Assembly: GCA_037147375.1 (NCBI GenBank)
Contig: JBAWVI010000023.1
Location: 1 to 10,757, forward strand
Length of the DNA stretch: 10,757 nt
Origin: an archaeon
GTDB taxonomy: Archaea > Iainarchaeota > Iainarchaeia > Iainarchaeales > CSSED10-239
Direction: 5' to 3'
Below are positions 1,286 through 10,757 of the stretch, one piece after another. A model generated the notes under the pieces. The model was given only the letters and a program-made list of their open reading frames with translations, did no database searches and was not told where the DNA came from. The translations under genes and the position numbers were made by a program. Within the stretch, counting starts at the first letter, position 1. The number at the start of each line of letters is the position of its first letter.

Positions 1286-1795
1286 ATGAGATTTAAGATA
1301 TTTATTATACTTATATTATTAACTTTCTTTTTACCAATTGTTCAAGCAGCTTATGCAGATTTTGGGATTAATGAGCTAATTGTTCCACAATCAATTAAGG
1401 AAGGAGAAGATCTTAATTACACTATAGTCCTTTCAAATAATTCTGGCGCAGGTTCTGTAGACGTAACTGTATGGATTTTACCGCCTACAGGAACATCAAT
1501 AAATATAGGTACTATATCACGTGCTGTCCCTGCAAATGGTACTGCAGACTTTAATGTAACAATAGATGACCCTTCAGTTGTTGATTTTGTAAATTCAAAT
1601 AACCCTTATTCAATTTATGCAACAATTCCAACAGAACCAAATGGAAATATTGCAAATAATGCTTATACTAAGTATTTTACTGTAAGAAAAGCAAGTAAAA
1701 AAATACCTGTTCCTGATATGCCTATAGTTCTTGGAATGGTTCTTGCAATCTCAATTGTGTTTATCTTAGCAAGAGATAATAAAAATAAAAAATAA
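1286..1795 (+). CDS. Secreted, C-terminally anchored surface protein with a CARDB-like Ig-fold domain
   Basis: A GAGGGG SD (1273-1278) lies 7 nt before the ATG. The signal peptide is MRFKIFIILILLTFFLPIVQAAYA. The single-domain body matches the CARDB pattern (KEGEDLNYTIVLSNNSGAGSVDVTVWI ... EPNGNIANNAYTKYFTV). It has four N-x-S/T sequons. The C-terminus is PVPDMP, then a TM helix (IVLGMVLAISIVFILA), then a basic tail (RDNKNKK). Confidence 0.6.
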   Translation: MRFKIFIILILLTFFLPIVQAAYADFGINELIVPQSIKEGEDLNYTIVLSNNSGAGSVDVTVWILPPTGTSINIGTISRAVPANGTADFNVTIDDPSVVDFVNSNNPYSIYATIPTEPNGNIANNAYTKYFTVRKASKKIPVPDMPIVLGMVLAISIVFILARDNKNKK

Positions 1796-1809: not shown

Positions 1810-2724
1810 ATGGAACAAGAAATCATACAAAAGCACATCTTAGCTGGTGAAATTAATCATAATGCACAAAAGCTTGCAAAAAAACTAATTAAACCTGGAG
1901 TTAACTTGTTTGAAGTTGGAGAAAAAATTAATTCTTTTATTTTAGAAAACAAGGGAGTTCCTGCTTGGCCAGTTAACTTATCTATTAACCATGAAGCAGC
2001 ACATAATACCTATAATCCTGAAAAACAATATATTCTAAAGGAAGAAGATATTCTAAAAGTTGATATTGGAGTTTCAATTGATGGTTATTTATCTGATTCA
2101 GCTATAACAATTATATTTTCAAAGAAGCATGAAACATTAAAAGAAGCTAGTGATAAAGCACTTGCAAATTCAAAAAAGTTCTTGCAAGAGAACACAAAGA
2201 CAGCTACTATTTCAGACATAGGTACTGTGATTGAAAACACAATTAGATCTTATAATTTCAAACCAATAATTAATTTAACAGGACATGTTCTTGGTCATTA
2301 TCATGTACATGATTATCCTTCAATTCCAAATGTTAAGAATGGACTTAAGATTAAGTTTTCTGAAATTGATAAAGCATTTGCGCTTGAACCTTTTTCATCA
2401 ACTGGAGATGGGTATGTTAATGAAGGAGATGAAGTACTTATCTTTGAGCATATTGATGATAGACCACTAAGAAACAAAGAAGCTAAGCTACTCTTAGAAG
2501 AAATTAAAAGATATAATGGTCTTCCATTTTCTGAAGTTTGGATAGGAAAAGGAATGGATAGTTTTTCAAAAAAGTTTGCATTAAGAGAATTATTAAAATC
2601 AGAAGCAATAGCATCATATCCAGTCTTAGTTGATAAGAAAGGAAGCTTTGTAAGCCAAGCAGAAACAAGTTTTGTAATTACAAAGGACGGATTAATTGAT
2701 TTGGTGAAAGTTGATGAACTTTAA
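1810..2724 (+). CDS. map: Methionine aminopeptidase, type 2 (archaeal MetAP)
   Basis: It resembles archaeal MetAP (as remembered from Pyrococcus) along the full length: PAWPVNLSINHEAAH, LKVDIGVSIDGYLSDSA, NLTGH, FALEPFSS, GLPFS, YPVL, SQAETSF. All five metal ligands (D, D, H, E, E) appear to be present. Confidence 0.93.
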   Translation: MEQEIIQKHILAGEINHNAQKLAKKLIKPGVNLFEVGEKINSFILENKGVPAWPVNLSINHEAAHNTYNPEKQYILKEEDILKVDIGVSIDGYLSDSAITIIFSKKHETLKEASDKALANSKKFLQENTKTATISDIGTVIENTIRSYNFKPIINLTGHVLGHYHVHDYPSIPNVKNGLKIKFSEIDKAFALEPFSSTGDGYVNEGDEVLIFEHIDDRPLRNKEAKLLLEEIKRYNGLPFSEVWIGKGMDSFSKKFALRELLKSEAIASYPVLVDKKGSFVSQAETSFVITKDGLIDLVKVDEL

Positions 2725-3700
2725 GGAAGATTTCTTAAGTAAACAAAGCATACTTAAATTGCTTTTAATAGTTATATCAATGTTAATCTGGATTTACTTT
2801 TACACTGCATCTAAAGTTTCATTAAGCATATTAATTGTGTTTGACTTACCATCAATTATGAATACTTTTGTTACACTTAATTTTGGTCTTTTCTTACTTT
2901 TATTTCCAATAACCTCTTGTATTGTTATTGCATTATCTAAAGGTAAAGATCTTTTGCTTGATATCTTGCAAGTTTCTATAGGTATTGTTATAGGTCTCTT
3001 GTTTGGATTAATAATATTTGGGCTTGGAACAGGTTTCTTACTATTTGGATTATTTTATTTAGTATCTCATATAATTTTAGAAGTATTAACACATCATAAG
3101 TTTAAAGAAAAAGAAAAAAGAAAATTATTTTCAGTAAATAATTATGCAACTTCAAAGATTAGTATCTTACTTACAGTAACCTTGCTTGTTGTTACTATGA
3201 TTATTATTTATCCACATCAACAAGAATCAGCACAATCAATGGAAGCTGGAATTGTAAATATGTTTGTTGGAGATGACTTAAGTAATTGGCTTGGAACATC
3301 ATACAACATAAGTAAAATTAGTACTAAATCCGCAATTGATTATATTATGTCAACTCCTGAATATAAGGGGTTATCAACAGTAAATGATGCAAAGGTAGAT
3401 AAGTTTACTGAATTTATGAGTAATCAAGCATCTGAGCTTGAAAAACCAACAACTGAAAAGGATGTAAAACTAGCATACGCTAATCTTACTGATGTGAAAT
3501 TAAAACAACAAATACTAGAAACTATTCGTGCAATTCCATTACTTGTAATTGTTGAAGAATACTTTGCATTTGTGTTTGCTTTGTTACTTGCATCACTTGC
3601 TCAATTATACTTTTCAATTGCATTTTCACTTCTTGGTATTCTTTATGTTTATATATTTTATAAATTGTTTTCAGTAGATGATGATGAGGAAAATAAGTGA
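2714..3700 (+). CDS. Polytopic membrane protein of unknown function (about 7-8 TM helices, about 115-aa extracytoplasmic loop domain)
   Basis: The ORF track starts at TTG 2711, but the adjacent ATG at 2714 is the more likely start. Either start overlaps the map stop codon (2722-2724). Several N-terminal TM helices are followed by a basic loop (HHKFKEKEKRK) and another TM helix. Next comes a soluble domain with N-x-S/T sequons (NIS, NLT), then two C-terminal TM helices and an acidic tail (SVDDDEENK). I recognise no family. Confidence 0.7.
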   Translation: MNFKEDFLSKQSILKLLLIVISMLIWIYFYTASKVSLSILIVFDLPSIMNTFVTLNFGLFLLLFPITSCIVIALSKGKDLLLDILQVSIGIVIGLLFGLIIFGLGTGFLLFGLFYLVSHIILEVLTHHKFKEKEKRKLFSVNNYATSKISILLTVTLLVVTMIIIYPHQQESAQSMEAGIVNMFVGDDLSNWLGTSYNISKISTKSAIDYIMSTPEYKGLSTVNDAKVDKFTEFMSNQASELEKPTTEKDVKLAYANLTDVKLKQQILETIRAIPLLVIVEEYFAFVFALLLASLAQLYFSIAFSLLGILYVYIFYKLFSVDDDEENK

Positions 3701-3706
3701 AATTAA

Positions 3707-5026
3707 ATGAAATTAATTAACTATGCATTAATAATAATTGGATTATTATTTTTTGGGTCACAAATACATGCTATCTCTTTATTTAATGCACAAGACGTTT
3801 CTAAGAATTATTTACAAACAAATGAAATGATTGATGCATTTTCTCAAGGAAGCATAACTTGTGATAAAAACACATACTTTGTAATTCCAATTATCTCAAA
3901 CTCAAATGATCTTTCGTTCTTTGTTATAATTTCAGAAAAAGATGGACTTGTTTATTCAACAAAAGATGAAACAACTGCAATTAGTTTATTAAAATCAGAA
4001 TATATCTTAAGATCTTTGTATTATTCTAATAACACAAATTATTTATCAACTCAATTGTTTGATAGAATGGATAGATTAATTTCTTTGCTTGATTCTAAAA
4101 AATCTAGACTTGAAGGATTAATTGCTGCAAGCTATCCATATGATGTTAAAACAGAGATAACAAGCACAAAAAACAAGCTTGTTACTTTAAATACTTCACT
4201 TGAAACTTTAAAAACAAACTTGAAGGAAATGTATGATCTTCAACAAGCATTTGTTTATTCTCCTAATTGCTCAAGTCTTGGAACACTTACAAGCAAGTTT
4301 AGTTCTGCATTTATAGGATACTCTGAAATTTCTAAGCAATCACTTGATTATCTTGATGCAACAGATACTGCTACAAAGGTTGTTGTTGCAAGCACACAAT
4401 TATCTGATGAAGATAAGAGAAGTATATTAGGTTTTATAACTCCACCAAGTAGTTTAAACTCAGAAGTTACATTTATTTACGATTCATTATCTTCAACAAA
4501 CAAGTTTTATTCAGACATTGTTGTAACTATAAGTAACACAACTAATAACAAAGGTTTAATGCTTTATTATAATAATTTTATATCAAGACAAGACTATGTA
4601 ACTGCAAAATCTATGTTATATGATTTTGATTCTGATTTCCCAAAGTATAATAGCCTTGATAGCGTTTTACAAGTAATTGTGGATCCAGAAAACATGGTTT
4701 ATTGGAAAGCACAAGAAGATGCAGATGCAATTACTTCTGAGTACACAATTATTAAGGAACAATACACAAAGGGCCAGTATAAGGATGTAATTAATAAAAT
4801 TAAATCAATTAGAACAAAAGCAAAGAACGTACTTTCTGAAGGATATGTTATTTATGAAGAAAAAACAAGCACCCTTTACTATTGGTTTGCAGGAAGTATA
4901 GCTTTTATTATAATAATTATAATAATTGCAAGAAAGATTAATGCTAAGAATTTAAAAAATAAAGGAAAAAAAGAAAGAAACAAAGATGATTTTTTAGAAT
5001 CAAGCGATGATTCTCTTTTTGGTTAA
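3707..5026 (+). CDS. Type-I membrane-anchored surface glycoprotein, unknown function
   Basis: It starts 7 nt after the preceding stop. The signal peptide is MKLINYALIIIGLLFFGSQIHA. The ectodomain of about 380 aa is Ser/Thr/Asn-rich, with helical heptad-like stretches (LISLLDSKKSRLEGLI ... LVTLNTSLETLKTNLKEMYDLQQ) and at least four sequons (NNT, NTS, NCS, NTT). The C-terminus is a TM helix (FAGSIAFIIIIIIIA) followed by a Lys-rich cytoplasmic tail. Confidence 0.7.
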   Translation: MKLINYALIIIGLLFFGSQIHAISLFNAQDVSKNYLQTNEMIDAFSQGSITCDKNTYFVIPIISNSNDLSFFVIISEKDGLVYSTKDETTAISLLKSEYILRSLYYSNNTNYLSTQLFDRMDRLISLLDSKKSRLEGLIAASYPYDVKTEITSTKNKLVTLNTSLETLKTNLKEMYDLQQAFVYSPNCSSLGTLTSKFSSAFIGYSEISKQSLDYLDATDTATKVVVASTQLSDEDKRSILGFITPPSSLNSEVTFIYDSLSSTNKFYSDIVVTISNTTNNKGLMLYYNNFISRQDYVTAKSMLYDFDSDFPKYNSLDSVLQVIVDPENMVYWKAQEDADAITSEYTIIKEQYTKGQYKDVINKIKSIRTKAKNVLSEGYVIYEEKTSTLYYWFAGSIAFIIIIIIIARKINAKNLKNKGKKERNKDDFLESSDDSLFG

Positions 5027-5035
5027 ATCATCTTA

Positions 5036-5048
5036 TTTTTAAAAAAAA
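5036..5048. terminator. Bidirectional oligo-T terminator between convergent genes
   Basis: The sequence tttttaaaaaaaa gives T5 on the + strand (10 nt after the 3707-5026 stop) and T8 on the - strand (12 nt after the ATPase stop at 5061). Confidence 0.45.
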
Positions 5049-5060
5049 GGAAAATAAAAT

Positions 5061-7295
5061 TTATTCTATTTTTATAGCTTCTGTTGCTTTGTAATTGTTA
5101 AGTGCAATCTTAAATGCAACATAATCCTTTGGAGGATTCTTACACAACGTATCTATGAAATTCTTTCTTGCTGTAATTAGAGCAAGTAAAGAATTTGGCT
5201 CAATATTATGTTCTCTTGAAATATCCTTAAGTAAATCTGAATTGTAAATTATTGGAAGTTTTGTAGTAAATAAGTCTCCTTCTTTTTGTTCAGGTTCTTT
5301 CTCATAAGATTTATAGATTGCATTATATTCAACCTTTCTTGTTTTAACATTAAACCCACGTATTTCATCAAGTTCCTTAATCTCTCTGTTTGTTTCATTA
5401 CTCCCTTTAAACCCAGTAACTATAACAATATCAAGACAAGTTAATAGTGATGGATCAAGTGAGATAGGTGGTGTAGTTAGTCTTGTTACTAAACTTTCTA
5501 CGCTTTTTGAGTGCACAGTAGATAAGGAACAGTGACCAGATGCCATACCCTGGAACATTAAAGACATTTCCTCACCTCTTACTTCACCTAAGATTAAGTA
5601 ATCAGGTCTTTGTCTGAATGATTCCTTTAAAAGATCAAGCATTGTTACTTCACCATATTTTTTACCACCAGAGTCAGGTGGACCAAAACCAGGTCTTGTA
5701 ATCTGTGGAATCCAGTTTTCCATTAATAAATTAATTTCTCTAGTGTCTTCAATTGAAACTACTCTTTGTGCTGGTGCAATAAATGATGATATTACGTTAA
5801 GTAAAGTTGTTTTTCCACCAGCAGTTGGTCCAATTAATACCATGTTCTTTTTAAATTCAAGAGCTGTCCATAAATAAGATGCAATTGTTGAATTAAGTGT
5901 ACCTGAGTTTATTAAATCAATTGCTGTTAATGGCTTTTGTGGAAACTTTCTGATTGTAAATGTTGGACCTCTAGTTGATACATTGCTTGTTAAGGTTGCA
6001 TTAACACGAGAACCATCTGGTAGTATTGCATCAAGTAATGGAGATGCATATGAAACATAACTTTTAGAAAGGTGTGCCATCTTAATTATAAATTGTTGTA
6101 ATTCCTTTTCAGTATCAAATTGTACGTTTGTAACTATGTGTCCATATTTACGATGAACAATAAAGATAGGTATTCCAATTCCATTACATTCAATATCTTC
6201 AATTAAAGTGTCGTGCATTAATGCTTCAATTCTATCAAGTCCATTAACTTGTCTAATTATATAGTATACAATTTTATTTTTTTGTAAGTTATCCATTCTA
6301 ATTTTATTTTTTGTAAATAATTTTTCAATCATTTCATAAATTTGACCTTCGTTTGTAAGATCAGCAATTGAAATTTTATTAATTAAAGAAGTTTTTGTTT
6401 CTTCTAATACCTTTGCTTCTTCTTTTGTTAATTCAGGTTCAGCAACAGTATATCTTTTTGCAGTGTTTCCCATTTCTTGGATAAATGCATATGCAAATCC
6501 AGGAATTAAAATTTGATAGTTTTCTGGAAGTAAATCTTTAGGCACTTCAAACTCTGGAGTTTGTACAATAATGTCTGATCTAAGTACTGGCTTTTCTGTT
6601 TCTACTGGTTTGTTTTTTATAAATAAATCATTAAGACTATTAAATACAGAACTATTTTTGTTTTCAGTTACTTGTACTTTCTTTTCAACTCTTGGAATAT
6701 CTGGGCTAACTGTTTTTGGACTAATAATTGGTTCTGTAATAACGTTTGGTTTATTTGTTTCCTCTCTTTGGCTCGCCTTGCTTGTTGACATAATTATTTG
6801 AGCTGTTGGTATTTCTTTAGGTTTTTCAACTATGATTGCAGGCTCTGGCTTAACTACAACAGTAGTAACAGGAATTTTACTCTTAGGTGTTTCTTGTACA
6901 ATAGGAGTAATTTGTTTTTGTACTTCTTCCTTTTGCTTTGTTTCTCCAGGAATAGTTGATTTAAGTTTCTTACCACTTAACATTTTTAATAAACCACTAC
7001 TTCTATTCTTGAGCTTGTATTTCTTAACCCCAATAATTCCAAAGTCTGTTGAAATTTCTATAAGTAGTTTATTATAATTAATAAGCTCTGTAATTATTTT
7101 AGTATCAAGTAATTTAGAATTAGTTAATAAGTTTTTGGTTTTGAGAGAAGTATATGCATCTTTTTCAGAAATCTTCTTATTAATTAGTTTTTTAAAGATT
7201 TCATAATCTTCTTTATTTCTAGTTGCTTCTAAAGTCTTTAGATATCCTATGCTCTTGATAAATTCCTTTAGTTTTTCGCTTTTGGGAAACTGCAT
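5061..7295 (-). CDS. Type IV pilus / archaellum-type secretion ATPase (FlaI/PilB/TadA, T2SSE family) with a long N-terminal extension
   Basis: Residues about 256-744 match archaeal FlaI-type ATPases. The motifs are YTVAEPE, Walker A GPTAGGKTT (aa 489-497; aa 489-496 = nt 5808-5831), Asp box RVVSIEDTREI, Walker B RPDYLILGEVRGEE and His box GHCSLSTVHS, plus the typical C-terminal helical region. Residues 1-255 are additional (see findings). Confidence 0.93.
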   Translation of the reverse strand: MQFPKSEKLKEFIKSIGYLKTLEATRNKEDYEIFKKLINKKISEKDAYTSLKTKNLLTNSKLLDTKIITELINYNKLLIEISTDFGIIGVKKYKLKNRSSGLLKMLSGKKLKSTIPGETKQKEEVQKQITPIVQETPKSKIPVTTVVVKPEPAIIVEKPKEIPTAQIIMSTSKASQREETNKPNVITEPIISPKTVSPDIPRVEKKVQVTENKNSSVFNSLNDLFIKNKPVETEKPVLRSDIIVQTPEFEVPKDLLPENYQILIPGFAYAFIQEMGNTAKRYTVAEPELTKEEAKVLEETKTSLINKISIADLTNEGQIYEMIEKLFTKNKIRMDNLQKNKIVYYIIRQVNGLDRIEALMHDTLIEDIECNGIGIPIFIVHRKYGHIVTNVQFDTEKELQQFIIKMAHLSKSYVSYASPLLDAILPDGSRVNATLTSNVSTRGPTFTIRKFPQKPLTAIDLINSGTLNSTIASYLWTALEFKKNMVLIGPTAGGKTTLLNVISSFIAPAQRVVSIEDTREINLLMENWIPQITRPGFGPPDSGGKKYGEVTMLDLLKESFRQRPDYLILGEVRGEEMSLMFQGMASGHCSLSTVHSKSVESLVTRLTTPPISLDPSLLTCLDIVIVTGFKGSNETNREIKELDEIRGFNVKTRKVEYNAIYKSYEKEPEQKEGDLFTTKLPIIYNSDLLKDISREHNIEPNSLLALITARKNFIDTLCKNPPKDYVAFKIALNNYKATEAIKIE

Positions 7296-7319
7296 ATTCT
7301 CTCATTCTTTCCCATATTT

Positions 7320-7673
7320 TTATTTTTTAATATCCTCAACAATTTCAGATGCGTCTTCTATATCTGTTTTCTGATTGTAAGCGTCTTTGAGTAAGTTTAA
7401 GTTATCACTTATTGTGTTTACGCATTCAGCAACTTCATTCCAAATCTTTTTTCTTTTATTTGTGTTTTCTTCAAGATTCTTTTGATTAAGTTCTTGCATA
7501 GTTGCATAAGTAAACTTTGTAATTGTATCAGCTTTTAGCTTTTCTTTTGCTCTTTTAATTTCGTCATCAATTTTTTCCTTTTGATCTTCGAAAGTTCTAA
7601 GCATTTCAAGCTTTGCTGTAATATCATTACTTCTGTTTTCAATAACATCTAAAAGTCCTATTATATCTACCAT
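7320..7673 (-). CDS. Small cytoplasmic coiled-coil protein, unknown function
   Basis: The ORF track begins at GTG 7682. The ATG at 7673 is preceded by AAAAAAAGGTGTATTTT, a GGTG SD (7680-7683, minus strand) with a 6-nt spacer, so the GTG would sit inside the SD. The 117-aa product is highly charged (K/E/D-rich), has no TM helix or signal peptide, and is helical with heptad-like character throughout. It stops 24 nt upstream of the ATPase start. Confidence 0.7.
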   Translation of the reverse strand: MVDIIGLLDVIENRSNDITAKLEMLRTFEDQKEKIDDEIKRAKEKLKADTITKFTYATMQELNQKNLEENTNKRKKIWNEVAECVNTISDNLNLLKDAYNQKTDIEDASEIVEDIKK

Positions 7674-7711
7674 AAAATACACCTTTTTTTCTTTAATTAT
7701 AATATATTATA

Positions 7712-7755
7712 TTGATAATCTTTATATCATAAAATATATGTTGATATCATTTATA
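7712..7755 (-). promoter_or_regulatory. Candidate internal promoter region with two TTGATA-N3-TTTATA direct repeats
   Basis: This is a 104-nt AT-rich gap between two same-strand genes. The repeats ttgataatctttata (7712-7726) and ttgatatcatttata (7741-7755) match at 12 of 15 positions and start 29 nt apart. Each carries a TATA-box-like TTTATA/TATAAA element 50-80 nt upstream of the ATG at 7673. Confidence 0.35.
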
Positions 7756-7786
7756 AATATATCTATTTTTCATTTTTTCTTAAAAA

Positions 7787-8290
7787 TTACGTTCTATTTA
7801 TATCAGATTCGTTTGGATCGCTCCCTCTTATATAACTTACATAGTTCATGTCTGTTTCTCTTATCTCTATATAGTATGATGTTTTTATGTCTGAGTTAAT
7901 ATCTACTGAACAATTGCCTAAGGATATGTTATTTGGGTTAAGTGCTTTAGTTACTAAGACTGTTATTTGATTTGGTATATTTTTATCTGTTTGTCCAGTA
8001 TAGTTACTTACGTAAATGTTATCTCCTTGACTAATTATTGTACAAATACTAACCTCATAGTTGTGTGCTCTAATAAAATCATAAGCTTTAGAATTAAAAT
8101 TATCAAGAGTAGTTGCAGTTACATTTGAATCAACTAGATATTTAAGTTCATTCTTGTAATTATCACTTAATTTGTTTGAAGTATATTCCATAACTGGTTC
8201 TGGCCTGAATAAAAGAAAGAGAGCAGTTATAAATGAGATAATTATTACTACAATAACAACGTATGTAAATCCTTTCGTGTTTATTTTCAT
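7787..8290 (-). CDS. Prepilin-like protein with class III (type IV pilin-type) signal peptide
   Basis: The ORF track starts at GTG 8299. The ATG at 8290 forms an ATGA start/stop overlap with the upstream gene and is preceded by GGTG. From that ATG the N-terminus is MKINTKG|FTYVVIVVIIISFITALFLLF. That is a short basic leader, K-G at -2/-1 and a hydrophobic helix, which is the archaeal prepilin pattern. The Asn/Ser/Thr-rich body has 2 Cys. Confidence 0.7.
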   Translation of the reverse strand: MKINTKGFTYVVIVVIIISFITALFLLFRPEPVMEYTSNKLSDNYKNELKYLVDSNVTATTLDNFNSKAYDFIRAHNYEVSICTIISQGDNIYVSNYTGQTDKNIPNQITVLVTKALNPNNISLGNCSVDINSDIKTSYYIEIRETDMNYVSYIRGSDPNESDINRT

Positions 8291-8646
8291 TTTATCCACA
8301 CCATTATTGAGGTTGTTTTGTTTATATCAAATAAATAATAATTAATTGTTTTCTTAGTTGCACTTTCTTGCTCATTATAGGAATTACAATCAGAGGTTAT
8401 TCCATTACAAATTGAAACACTATAAGAAACATCCATATAATTGTATACTGAATCATATACATTGTATGCGTTTCCATCATTAACAAGTTCTCTAAAAGAT
8501 GGATCTTGTGCTTTTAGTTTAAGAATCTCGTACGTTCTTTCACTTATGTTTGTAGAAACTTGTTTTTCAGGAACATTTTGAATTAAGAAGAAAATAAATG
8601 TGAATAAGATTAAGATTGCAATTACAACTTCAAGTGATTTAATCAT
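8287..8646 (-). CDS. Small prepilin-like / N-terminally anchored exported protein (paralog of 7787-8290)
   Basis: The N-terminus is MIKS|LEVVIAILILFTFIFFLIQ, with a very short leader and K-S at -2/-1. It shares with the downstream gene the layout helix - PE - about 52 aa - Y-x-V-S-I-C. It has 2 Cys (C80, C87). Confidence 0.6.
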   Translation of the reverse strand: MIKSLEVVIAILILFTFIFFLIQNVPEKQVSTNISERTYEILKLKAQDPSFRELVNDGNAYNVYDSVYNYMDVSYSVSICNGITSDCNSYNEQESATKKTINYYLFDINKTTSIMVWIK

Positions 8647-8659
8647 AATTTATTCAAAT

Positions 8660-9646
8660 TTAATTTATCATTCCATCAATCATATTTTCTATGATTGAAA
8701 AGTATTTATCTTCATCCTCGTCTTCTGAAAGATATTCAGGAGGAATAGCATAATATGCAACCTTGTTTGAATTACTTGTAACAATTGCTGGGAATACATC
8801 TCCTCCACCAACGCTTGTGTTTGTGTCCTTAAATAATTTAGAACCATAATCAATCTTTAAAGGAACTGCATTATTTCCAATAACTTCAACTATTGCAAAA
8901 TTATCTCTTATTGGAAGAGTGCTTTTTAGAGCATAAACAAGTGGATGATCAGGAGAGGGAATTAGATTACCATTTGAGTAATCAGGATAACTTATAATTA
9001 TTGATTTATTATCATATTCATTTATCTTGTATGTTTTTTCCTTACAATCCTTAACGTTACAGAAAGTATCTACGTATGATACTCCAAGGAACTCATCAAA
9101 TCTTATCATATACCCTTCATTATCAAGTCTTGCCCATTTACCAACTATATTACCATCATAAGAACCATCAACATCTCCCACAGTTAAGTATTTATCAACT
9201 CTATCTTTTGTATCAACACCAGCATCTCCAATCCAAATAAGTCTACCGCCTTTAGATACATAGTTTTGAAACATAGTTAGGTTGTTTGTGGACATGCTTC
9301 TTGCTCTTTCAACTATTACAAGGCTAACTCCTTTTAGTTTTTCTGGGCTCATATAATTAATATTTTCTAGAGATGGATGAAGCCCTAAATGTTTTTTATC
9401 AGAAATAATATTATTTAATAAATAAGGGTTACCAAGTCCAGTTTGATCATTAGGATCATAAATAATTAATATACTTGGTTGTGTTCTTCCAGTAATTAGG
9501 GTTTGTGTACCCCAATAAATGTTGCACATGCCAGGAACTGATCTACATCTAAGGTTTCCAGTCCAGATCATTGCAAACAATAGTATGATCAATAATAGTA
9601 GAACAAATAAACTTCTTCTTACAATCTTTTTCTGCTTATCATCCAT
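8660..9646 (-). CDS. N-terminally anchored extracytoplasmic protein with class I glutamine-amidotransferase-like (ThuA/DUF4159/DUF4350-type) domain
   Basis: A GGGGA SD-like element lies 9 nt upstream of the ATG. The N-terminus is MDDKQKKIVRRS|LFVLLLLIILLFAMIW. The body shows the pattern typical of non-catalytic GATase1-like domains. This pattern is SILIIYDP (beta1), VSLVIVERA...MFQNYVSKGGRLIWIGDAG, PDHPLVYAL and FPAIVTSNSNKVAYYAIPPE. The C-terminal tail is acidic (SEDEDEDK). The fold-level call is from pattern memory only. Confidence 0.55.
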   Translation of the reverse strand: MDDKQKKIVRRSLFVLLLLIILLFAMIWTGNLRCRSVPGMCNIYWGTQTLITGRTQPSILIIYDPNDQTGLGNPYLLNNIISDKKHLGLHPSLENINYMSPEKLKGVSLVIVERARSMSTNNLTMFQNYVSKGGRLIWIGDAGVDTKDRVDKYLTVGDVDGSYDGNIVGKWARLDNEGYMIRFDEFLGVSYVDTFCNVKDCKEKTYKINEYDNKSIIISYPDYSNGNLIPSPDHPLVYALKSTLPIRDNFAIVEVIGNNAVPLKIDYGSKLFKDTNTSVGGGDVFPAIVTSNSNKVAYYAIPPEYLSEDEDEDKYFSIIENMIDGMIN

Positions 9647-9775: not shown

Positions 9776-9943
9776 ATGAAATGGCAACATTCAAAGAATA
9801 CAACTCAAAGTCCTAGTTCATCAATTGGAATCATGAAATTCAATGAGACCATGAGTGGACCAAAACTAACTCCAGAAACTATAGTTGGTATAACAATTGC
9901 GTTTGCAGTATTAGTGATAATATTAAAGTTTACTGTTTTTTAA
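9776..9943 (+). CDS. secG: Preprotein translocase subunit Sec61-beta (archaeal SecG)
   Basis: This 55-aa ORF is not in the supplied track. Its translation is MKWQHSKNTTQSPSSSIGIMKFNETMSGPKLTPETIVGITIAFAVLVIILKFTVF. It matches the archaeal Sec61-beta pattern (remembered from M. jannaschii: [36 protein letters not shown]), including the tail-anchor TM helix. An AAAAAAGGTGTA SD lies 8 nt upstream of the ATG. Confidence 0.85.
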   Translation: MKWQHSKNTTQSPSSSIGIMKFNETMSGPKLTPETIVGITIAFAVLVIILKFTVF

Positions 9944-9957
9944 AAAGTATATTCATT

Positions 9958-9978
9958 TAGGAGATATTGTTTCTCCTA
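9958..9978 (+). terminator. 7-bp stem-loop 15 nt downstream of sec61-beta
   Basis: The sequence taggaga-tattgtt-tctccta forms a perfect 7-bp stem with a 7-nt loop. No strong T-tract follows, so terminator function is uncertain. Confidence 0.3.
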
Positions 9979-10049
9979 TGTTAGATGTTTATATCTCTTT
10001 CGTGAGGTAAGCTTGGTTAAGCATACTTTCAATAGATATTTAAAAATAG

Positions 10050-10397
10050 TTATTTATATTTAAATTTCTTATTATATTCGTTGTGATCTATTATATCTAA
10101 AATAAACGCAACTATTTCTATTTCATTTGAATCTGTTAATGTATATAACATCCTCCAGTATAAAGGAAGTTCAACTCTAAATAAATTAGAAATATTGTAT
10201 GTATCTATATAATCTTTAGGAAAAAGAGAATGAGGGACCTTAATACCATATTGTGGATTTTCTTTTATTAATTCTATTTTTTTAGTTATTGAATCTAAGA
10301 TTTGTTTTTCTTTTTTTGAATGAAGAGATTCTTTCTTTAGATAATTATATACTTCTTCTGCTTTTGGAGATAGTACAACAACTAATGTTTTTTTCAT
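10050..10397 (-). CDS. RelE/ParE/YoeB-superfamily toxin (type II toxin-antitoxin system)
   Basis: This is a 115-aa protein. The N-terminal helical hairpin is LSPKAEEVYNYLKKE...ILDSITKKIELIKENPQYG. The C-terminal sheet region is FRVELPLYWRMLYTLTDSNEIEIVAFILDIIDHNEY. Both fit the RelE/ParE pattern (..P..G ... YR.IY.. ... I..I.H...Y). There is a 4-nt ATGA overlap with the upstream small gene. Confidence 0.65.
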   Translation of the reverse strand: MKKTLVVVLSPKAEEVYNYLKKESLHSKKEKQILDSITKKIELIKENPQYGIKVPHSLFPKDYIDTYNISNLFRVELPLYWRMLYTLTDSNEIEIVAFILDIIDHNEYNKKFKYK

Positions 10398-10678
10398 AGT
10401 CTAGTTCCTTTCTTAATATCTTCTTGAAGTTTTGTGTTTGTGTTGTATACCCAAGTTATTCCTTTAAGGCCAACATAGATTTTATTACTATTTTCTAAAT
10501 ATTCAAGTATATGCATTAAGGTATTATGGTTTACTTGCTTTGGTAGTTCTTTTTTAATTGCTGATACCTTAAACACACTATCATTCATGTTCTTTAAAGT
10601 ATTTTCAACCATGATTACTGTATTTAATGTTGGAGAATATTTAGGTTCCACTTTCTTAACACCTTTCTTTTTATTCAT
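10394..10678 (-). CDS. Putative antitoxin / winged-helix DNA-binding protein
   Basis: This 94-aa ORF is translationally coupled (ATGA overlap) to the RelE-like gene. It has a basic N-terminus (MNKKKGVKKV) and a winged-helix-like core (VSAIKKELPKQVNHNTLMHILEYLENSNKIYVGLKGITWVY). An AAAAGGTGTGATTT SD precedes the ATG. The role is inferred mainly from position. Confidence 0.5.
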   Translation of the reverse strand: MNKKKGVKKVEPKYSPTLNTVIMVENTLKNMNDSVFKVSAIKKELPKQVNHNTLMHILEYLENSNKIYVGLKGITWVYNTNTKLQEDIKKGTRL

Positions 10679-10690
10679 AAATCACACCTT

Positions 10691-10734
10691 TTAGTTACTA
10701 ACTAATAACTATTAGGTATGAAATAATATATAAA
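10691..10734 (-). promoter_or_regulatory. TA-operon promoter: consensus TATA box plus two overlapping palindromic operator-like sites
   Basis: On the minus strand, TTTATATA lies at 10734-10727. About 25-30 nt downstream are the palindromes TTAGTTA-c-TAACTAA (10691-10705) and CTAATA-ac-TATTAG (10702-10715). They sit over the expected transcription start, immediately upstream of the SD. Confidence 0.4.
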
Positions 10735-10757
10735 TGTTATTATTTAACTTATTTTCT

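Follow-up and report, generated by a model that had tools for sequence, protein, structure and literature searches.

A putative split type IV pilus locus conserved in a clade of Iainarchaeota

Results

Gene content of the locus

The stretch of DNA analyzed here, referred to as the window, comprises 10,757 nucleotides (nt) from an Iainarchaeota archaeon (GenBank assembly GCA_037147375.1, contig JBAWVI010000023.1), has a guanine-cytosine content of 25–35% and is contained in several public assemblies. Its relatives are Iainarchaeota/Diapherotrites metagenome-assembled genomes together with the complete Candidatus Forterrea multitransposorum genome. A reading of the window made from the sequence alone (the sequence-only reading) had proposed a non-canonical type IV pilus (T4P)-like locus of five co-directional minus-strand genes at 5061–9646, and all five open reading frames are present; they encode, in order of transcription, the proteins termed G1, G2, G3 and G4 and an assembly ATPase. 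The genes secE, spt5/nusG, rpl11, p169, methionine aminopeptidase (MetAP), mem329 and p439 lie on the plus strand. The features of the locus are as follows.

8660–9646, minus strand: G1, type II membrane protein of 328 amino acids (aa) with a basic, predicted cytoplasmic N-terminus, one transmembrane segment and a predicted extracytoplasmic GATase1-like domain
8287–8646, minus strand: G2, pilin-like, 119 aa; N-terminus M-I-K-[STV]-x-E followed by a hydrophobic helix; two conserved Cys
7787–8290, minus strand: G3, pilin-like, 167 aa from ATG; [KR]-G-F-T-Y-[IV]-[IV]-I followed by a hydrophobic helix
7674–7786, minus strand: AT-rich G3–G4 spacer with a 29-nt tandem repeat and TATA-like runs
7320–7673, minus strand: G4, soluble coiled-coil protein, 117 aa, no transmembrane segment, directly upstream of the ATPase
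5061–7295, minus strand: FlaI/PilB/GspE2-family type IV pilus assembly ATPase, 744 aa, PF00437 E = 5.9e-32
5027–5060, no strand: convergent spacer between the ATPase and p439, 34 nt, T-tracts on both strands

The T2SSE/FlaI-family assignment of the last gene was borne out by its PF00437 match and by inspection of the protein, which located all four motifs: Walker A GPTAGGKT at 489, the Asp box SIEDTRE at 514, Walker B LILGEVR at 567 and the His box GHCSLSTVH at 587. The window therefore holds a secretion ATPase of the VirB11/PilB/FlaI superfamily, as expected of an archaeal T4P/Tad-like system. The protein consists of an N-terminal domain of ~100 aa, a linker at approximately aa 100–260, a FlaI-like N-terminal domain and a RecA-like C-terminal domain, and its best PDB matches are Archaeoglobus fulgidus GspE2 (2OAP, 2.4e-94) and Sulfolobus acidocaldarius FlaI (4II7, 4.7e-67). 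The linker (window 6516–6995, ~160 aa) is of low complexity and rich in Pro, Lys, Glu, Val and Thr. Repeats in “a secretion-related ATPase” were reported to have caused assembly errors in the Candidatus Forterrea genome (PMC5905446), and those repeats may lie in the orthologue of this linker region.

Membership of the locus in the archaellum (arl/fla) was considered and rejected. The top NCBIfam model for the ATPase is indeed FlaI (NF058587), but the score of 319.7 bits falls far under the equivalog cutoff of 550, the first-ranked PDB match is GspE2 rather than FlaI, and none of the archaellum partners FlaH, FlaJ, FlaF/G, archaellin (PF01917) and FlaCDE/X was found in the window. The model for BasE of the Sulfolobus bindosome (NF053672) likewise scored 196.7 bits, under its cutoff of 1000.

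Hydrophobic segments are absent from the ATPase and G4, and G1, G2 and G3 each have a single one at the N-terminus. The N-terminal motifs of G2 and G3 are strongly conserved, that of G2 standing at the extreme N-terminus, and two Cys are kept in each protein in most orthologues. The sequence-only reading took the start of G3 for a textbook class III signal peptide; with its [KR]-G pair ahead of the hydrophobic helix, this N-terminus is class III-like. The sequence-only reading had described G2 and G3 as two tiny Cys-containing paralogues; the conserved Cys pairs were confirmed, whereas paralogy is undetectable (hhalign probability 3%) and was set aside as unsupported. G2 and G3 are the locus’s own pilin-like components, probably acting as minor pilins. 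G4, as anticipated, lacks any transmembrane segment, and its comparison with Pfam and the PDB returned coiled-coil noise only; a DUF7809 match (E ~0.01–0.03 in three of 11 members) is below cutoff. It resembles arCOG07564, a coiled-coil cytoplasmic protein that Makarova, Koonin and Albers described in 2016 in halobacterial T4P loci (PMC4858521), and it may be an analogue of that protein. Profile searches placed none of the accessory proteins in a pilus or archaellum family.

The genes are closely spaced, with 13 nt between G1 and G2, an ATGA overlap between G2 and G3 (ata aaA TGA aaa) and 24 nt between G4 and the ATPase. These spacings agree with the sequence-only reading, while the 104-nt G3–G4 gap that it gave holds only if G4 starts at the GTG at 7682. 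The ATG at 7673, which makes the gap 113 nt, is the likelier start because it is preceded by GGTG, a ribosome-binding site, and matches public gene calls of 117 aa. The spacer contains a 29-nt unit repeated in 2.3 copies with 82% match (7690–7755), and its length is 10 to 130 nt in two relatives of the window’s own clade (L026 and L019) and 15 nt in the sister locus L018. It may serve as an internal promoter for G4 and the ATPase.

At the other end of the operon, the stop codons of the ATPase and p439 are 34 nt apart, p439 ending at 5026. A bidirectional terminator and a convergent gene had been predicted here; the convergent gene and T-tracts on both strands are present, and no stem-loop was found in 5027–5060. 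The T-tracts probably act as oligo-T terminators of the archaeal type, serving both the ATPase operon and p439.

Conservation of gene order and absence of platform genes nearby

Eight genomes form the in-group, that is, the monophyletic clade of the window: the window itself, L006, L007, L008 (the complete 840-kb Candidatus Forterrea genome, CP045477.1), L009, L010, L019 and L026. The five-gene order is identical in all eight, as are its surroundings, with divergent sec61-beta on one side of G1-G2-G3-G4-ATPase and, on the other, convergent p439, mem329, MetAP, p169, L11, Spt5 and SecE. The G1–G2 gap ranges from 9 to 104 nt. In-group ATPases are 671 to 747 aa long, varying mainly in the linker, and share 53–87% full-length identity with the window ATPase. 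These identities, together with the intact catalytic motifs of the window ATPase, argue for purifying selection.

Where is the platform protein on which such an ATPase would act? As the sequence-only reading had stated, the window encodes no platform, peptidase or PilA-type pilin: Pfam and NCBIfam searches with all window proteins matched neither PF00482, nor an A24 peptidase, nor any pilin family. That reading had named a FlaJ/TadC gene and standard pilin genes just outside the window as grounds against it, and none was found within about 10 kb in the eight in-group genomes. More specifically, the genes called in L001, L019 and L026 up to 10 kb away in either direction include none for a PF00482 protein; six TadC proteins from the sister clade, compared by tblastn with the in-group loci, gave nothing below E = 0.6; and in none of the eight genomes does a “GVSPLIA” pilin of the sister-clade type lie up to about 10 kb from the locus in either direction. 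A metagenome scan with the TadC alignment, which used narrow patterns, recovered four loci, all of them out-group and none on a 688-kb in-group contig (Ga0209340_1000002), and a scan of viral contigs for TadC recovered nothing. Prepilin peptidase is absent from the window and from the flanks of the in-group loci, and likewise from the vicinity of the canonical out-group loci; its absence from the locus is therefore uninformative.

Homologous loci in the sister clades

The list of ATPase homologues shows a sharp step, from at least 753 bits in the window clade to at most 568 bits below it. Seven distinct sister loci of the lower tier were compared: L016 (GCA_026396995.1), L017/L024 (L017, GCA_964551725.1), L018 (GCA_043821385.1, JBDRCV010000008.1), L022, L023, L025 and L027. 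In all seven, two half-size T2SSF/TadC genes (PF00482, ~290 and ~285 aa) directly follow the ATPase. Where upstream sequence is available, a G2-like, a G3-like and a G4-like gene precede the ATPase in the order of the window. The G4 homologues are 108–115 aa long; the one in L018 shares 31% identity over 114 aa (E = 2e-12), and G4 also aligns with proteins of L027, L016 and L017. The G3 homologues (172–201 aa) start with “KGF” or “KGQ”, the L018 protein matching at E = 6e-4, and the two Cys in the globular part of G3 are kept in L018 as in the in-group orthologues. The G2 homologues (~128 aa) start with “MIKxxEAL” and match at E = 2e-6 to 8e-5 in L018, L017 and L016. The accessory set, which the sequence-only reading could not recognize and took to be lineage-specific, is thus largely that of canonical sister loci, and its broader proposal of a T4P-related locus in a DPANN archaeon is supported by both the ATPase family and this homology.

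Farther upstream, again where sequence is available, the sister loci encode an adhesin of 1093–2211 aa and several 144–168-aa proteins with the motif “KGVSPLIATxLL”. The latter have weak matches to PF07790 (E = 7e-4) and PF01917 and, judged by sequence, are ordinary archaeal PilA-type pilins. Some in-group genomes encode a DUF2341 or LamG protein just beyond sec61-beta, with an N-terminus “xYIDW” like that of the giant out-group adhesin. Because of this common N-terminus, the in-group and out-group loci would be roughly collinear, with sec61-beta and G1 interposed.

The canonical Iainarchaeota/Diapherotrites T4P loci, themselves known from genes alone, therefore resemble the window locus in their ATPase clade (45–57% identity, with a common long N-terminal extension) and in the G2-like, G3-like, G4-like order upstream of the ATPase. 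They differ in having a TadC pair downstream, PilA-type pilins and an adhesin upstream, and no homologue of G1; the window clade has no TadC, PilA or giant adhesin beside the ATPase and has G1 and sec61-beta at the 5' side. In a neighbour-joining tree of the ATPases, the in-group is one clade nested among TadC-linked loci. For this reason a single separation event is indicated, and TadC adjacency is, on the tree, read as ancestral and lost once.

G1, a membrane-anchored GATase1-like protein

The G1 family has 57 members, uniformly 300–350 aa long and all hypothetical proteins of Iainarchaeota type. The GATase1-like character suggested from the sequence was upheld by an AlphaFold2 model built from a 50-sequence alignment (predicted local distance difference test, pLDDT, 93; predicted template modelling score 0.90), in which the ectodomain is predicted to adopt the GATase1 alpha/beta fold. 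Foldseek against the PDB returned ThuA-like 4PXY, GH42 5XB7, PurQ 3D54, IFT52 5FMS and HisH 4GUD (E = 7e-7 to 2e-5), so that the nearest folds are ThuA-like, GH42, PurQ, HisH and GIFT; the matches reach probability 1.0, E about 1e-6 and a TM score on the target of up to 0.65 (4PXY). A weak match to PF09822 (ABC_transp_aux) was also recorded.

A Cys-His-Glu triad was sought in the same alignment. No invariant or near-invariant His was found, and the nucleophile elbow reads WIGDAG, with no Cys; we therefore infer a non-catalytic extracytoplasmic domain carried on a signal anchor. The invariant Cys of G1 are C34 and C41, beside the transmembrane segment, and C196 and C201, in a hairpin. The modelled fold is common to the ThuA-like, GIFT (GldG and the IFT52 N-terminal domain) and GH42 domain-B proteins, from whose members G1 differs in an identity of only 10–14%, the lack of the triad, the N-terminal membrane anchor and the two conserved Cys pairs. 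The anchor and the Cys pairs suggest an extracytoplasmic, non-enzymatic role. The N-terminal “RRS/L” of G1 was considered as a class III signal peptide and rejected, since the motif is not conserved among orthologues; the N-terminus is therefore treated as a signal anchor.

Distant homologues of G1 occur beside sec61-beta with no ATPase (L014) and with neither sec61-beta nor an ATPase nearby (L013). Because such homologues occur without the ATPase, the pairing of G1 with sec61-beta appears to be the older one, and the pilus genes probably joined later. In the distant Diapherotrites contig L014 (10001–14541), four genes follow sec61-beta. The first encodes the G1 homologue and the second another GATase1-like membrane protein (PF07090, E = 1e-3); the third product is a membrane protein of 192 aa, and the fourth, of 608 aa, has Glug repeats and a clear class III signal of archaeal type, AQG/TIEYLVIVGV.

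Convergent neighbours mem329 and p439

The two genes that converge on the ATPase are as follows.

2711–3700, plus strand: mem329, predicted seven transmembrane segments with the N-terminus outside and the C-terminus inside; a 115-aa helical extracytoplasmic domain
3707–5026, plus strand: p439, Sec-type signal peptide, long and largely helical ectodomain, C-terminal transmembrane anchor

As the only polytopic candidate, mem329 was evaluated as a diverged TadC and rejected on sequence profile, fold and topology. Pfam searches with 50 family members gave no match and specifically no PF00482, a PDB profile search returned nothing, and hhalign against both sister TadC types gave a probability of 1.4% or less. 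Foldseek of its AlphaFold2 model (pLDDT 80) against the PDB found no match at E <= 0.001, with TM about 0.2. A blastp match to the L018 TadC (E = 0.012) reflects non-collinear hydrophobic similarity. The positive-inside charge bias predicts that the helical domain lies outside the cell and a Lys-rich loop inside. An exhaustive profile search recovered 137 representatives of this unannotated family at 50% clustering, of ~310–390 aa. The TTG start of mem329 overlaps the MetAP stop codon by 14 nt, and one distant homologue is likewise found close to MetAP, surrounded by LamG/Big_7 surface-protein genes and with no ATPase in the vicinity. Because this distant member keeps MetAP without the ATPase, the conserved partner of mem329 is the MetAP neighbourhood rather than the ATPase.

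The convergent neighbour of the ATPase in every in-group genome is p439. It ends in a short tail with a conserved acidic DD(S/P)(L/F) and gave no match in a family search; it may be an S-layer-like or surface protein.

Discussion

We hypothesize that the window carries a split or trimmed T4P locus whose core of minor pilins and ATPase cooperates with a platform, a peptidase and a major pilin from other parts of the genome. On this view G1 has been recruited to the core or is simply co-transcribed, and we give this reading a probability of roughly 60%. Since the homologues of G2, G3, G4 and the ATPase keep their order in the sister loci, the arrangement is explained on present evidence by trimming or splitting of the canonical locus, with no new kind of machine. 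By homology, G2–G4 and the ATPase are the conserved core of the canonical Iainarchaeota T4P locus. Among described systems the closest likeness is to euryarchaeal and Tad-like T4P (Haloferax PilB/PilC with PilA; Methanococcus Epd with the ATPase EpdL and half-size EpdJ/EpdK; PMC4858521), which share with the window a FlaI/PilB-family ATPase and pilin-like proteins that begin with a hydrophobic helix. Their half-size platform pair is matched in the sister loci, and a DUF2341 adhesin in relatives. The window departs from them in having no adjacent platform and in that G2 and G3 fall outside the described pilin families. Nor is a GATase1-like membrane protein a described T4P accessory; none is mentioned in PMC4858521, and the present arrangement was not found described in the literature.

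How would such a core assemble a filament? By analogy with known systems, the ATPase would form a hexamer at the membrane, and G4, a small cytoplasmic coiled-coil protein, could be its partner or regulator. G2 and G3 would be inserted in the membrane, most likely as minor pilins that prime assembly or that form a tip or base complex with the DUF2341/LamG adhesin encoded beyond sec61-beta in some relatives. ATP hydrolysis would then, via a TadC-type platform encoded elsewhere, drive pilins out of the membrane and into a filament with which the cell attaches to surfaces or to a host. G1, joined to the 5' end of the operon, would be a surface or glycan-binding accessory, or would only be transcribed along with it. 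DPANN archaea are thought to depend on contact with other cells, and among the structures that could attach them to a host, type IV pili are prime candidates.

Several observations weigh against this reading. In all eight in-group genomes, TadC, prepilin peptidase and PilA-type pilins are missing from the ~20 kb that surround the locus, and that these parts are encoded elsewhere is an assumption, albeit a likely one. G2 has essentially no leader peptide, neither G2 nor G3 matches the Pfam pilin families PF07790, PF04021 and PF01917, and distant Diapherotrites homologues of G1 are found without any ATPase. Moreover, a stable, clade-wide separation of ATPase and TadC is unusual, because the two are described as a linked module in the archaeal loci surveyed by Makarova et al. 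(PMC4858521). The same survey reports that pilin genes often stand apart from ATPase/TadC modules and that one pilin set may be common to several systems, and a survey of DPANN archaea reports type IV pili for the reference genomes of Diapherotrites (PMC8561730). These reports make it more likely that the missing parts are encoded elsewhere, as an argument from the literature rather than a test.

The functional link between G1 and the pilus genes is the weakest part of the interpretation. The locus could comprise two separate units, a sec61-beta-associated, non-pilus G1 and a G2-G3-G4-ATPase pilus module, in which G4 and the ATPase perhaps have their own promoter. The lack of G1 in the canonical out-group loci is consistent with this, as are the L014 and L013 homologues that stand apart from any ATPase and the TATA-like runs in the 113-nt AT-rich, repeat-bearing spacer before G4. 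The short distance between G1 and G2, here and throughout the in-group, speaks for one unit, and in L014 the clustering of the G1 homologue with a class III signal-bearing Glug adhesin and a second GATase1-like paralogue hints that an association with pilin-like surface proteins is older. We consider the two-unit arrangement possible, though doubtful. That the locus is a decaying remnant with no current function is highly improbable: the flanking TadC and pilin genes have been lost relative to the sisters, but five intact open reading frames persist in eight genomes whose ATPases diverge to 53% identity, with the motifs of the window ATPase intact and the N-terminal motifs and Cys of G2 and G3 kept in orthologues. 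Reduced genomes are under deletion pressure, which also counts against a remnant.

A more far-reaching alternative is that the in-group has lost TadC and operates with no platform or with a non-homologous one, the ATPase, with its long N-terminal extension, and G4 acting with another membrane partner such as mem329, or directly on pilin-like proteins, to assemble or secrete proteins of the G2/G3 type. TadC is absent within 10 kb in eight genomes and adjacent in every sister locus, both mem329 and p439 keep their convergent position beside the ATPase throughout the in-group, and unrelated proteins with four to five transmembrane segments have been proposed as TadC substitutes in some Thermoproteales systems (PMC4858521). 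However, mem329 is unlike TadC by Pfam, hhalign and fold search, topology prediction puts its helical domain outside the cell and away from the ATPase, and its family is broad, the distant homologue examined having no ATPase nearby. To our knowledge, no T4P-family ATPase acts without a platform of the PilC/TadC/FlaJ type, which further counts against such a machine. We regard it as unlikely, and we are equally sceptical of its extension, that the GATase1-like ectodomain protein G1 was recruited as a new extracellular component.

The comparison shows that one whole Iainarchaeota clade has reorganized its pilus genes, the ATPase, G4, G2 and G3 having long been kept together and unlinked from the platform and from recognizable major pilins. 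If the platform is indeed encoded elsewhere, the clade offers a clean case in nature of a T4P locus that has been split. The G2-G3-G4 triplet, all three members of which are at present annotated “hypothetical”, is a marker of Iainarchaeota pilus loci. Should the clade instead prove to have no TadC/FlaJ/PilC, this would be the first type IV filament-type ATPase module without a canonical platform, and absence of the platform from complete genomes would challenge the rule that type IV filament ATPases need a PilC/TadC/FlaJ partner.

Other flanking features

Two further conserved neighbours complete the surroundings of the locus.

1286–1795, plus strand: p169, small protein with a signal peptide and a C-terminal transmembrane anchor
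9776–9943, divergent from G1: sec61-beta, conserved neighbour

Only weak beta-sandwich matches (DUF11, LtfC-like) were obtained for p169, which is kept between rpl11 and MetAP in all relatives. Beyond sec61-beta, an overlapping two-gene pair at 10050–10678 on the minus strand consists of p115, with a weak ParE-toxin match (PF05016, E = 5e-4), and p94 upstream of it; from these features it is probably a toxin–antitoxin module, and it is present in only some assemblies of the window organism. Several independent assemblies of the window organism (the starts of L002–L005) break within ~1 kb upstream of sec61-beta (window ~9950–10757). At the position of the break, L019 and L026 carry a DUF2341 or LamG adhesin gene. 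The breaks and the adhesin gene of the relatives together suggest that the region upstream of sec61-beta is a strain-variable or repeat-rich surface-protein region.

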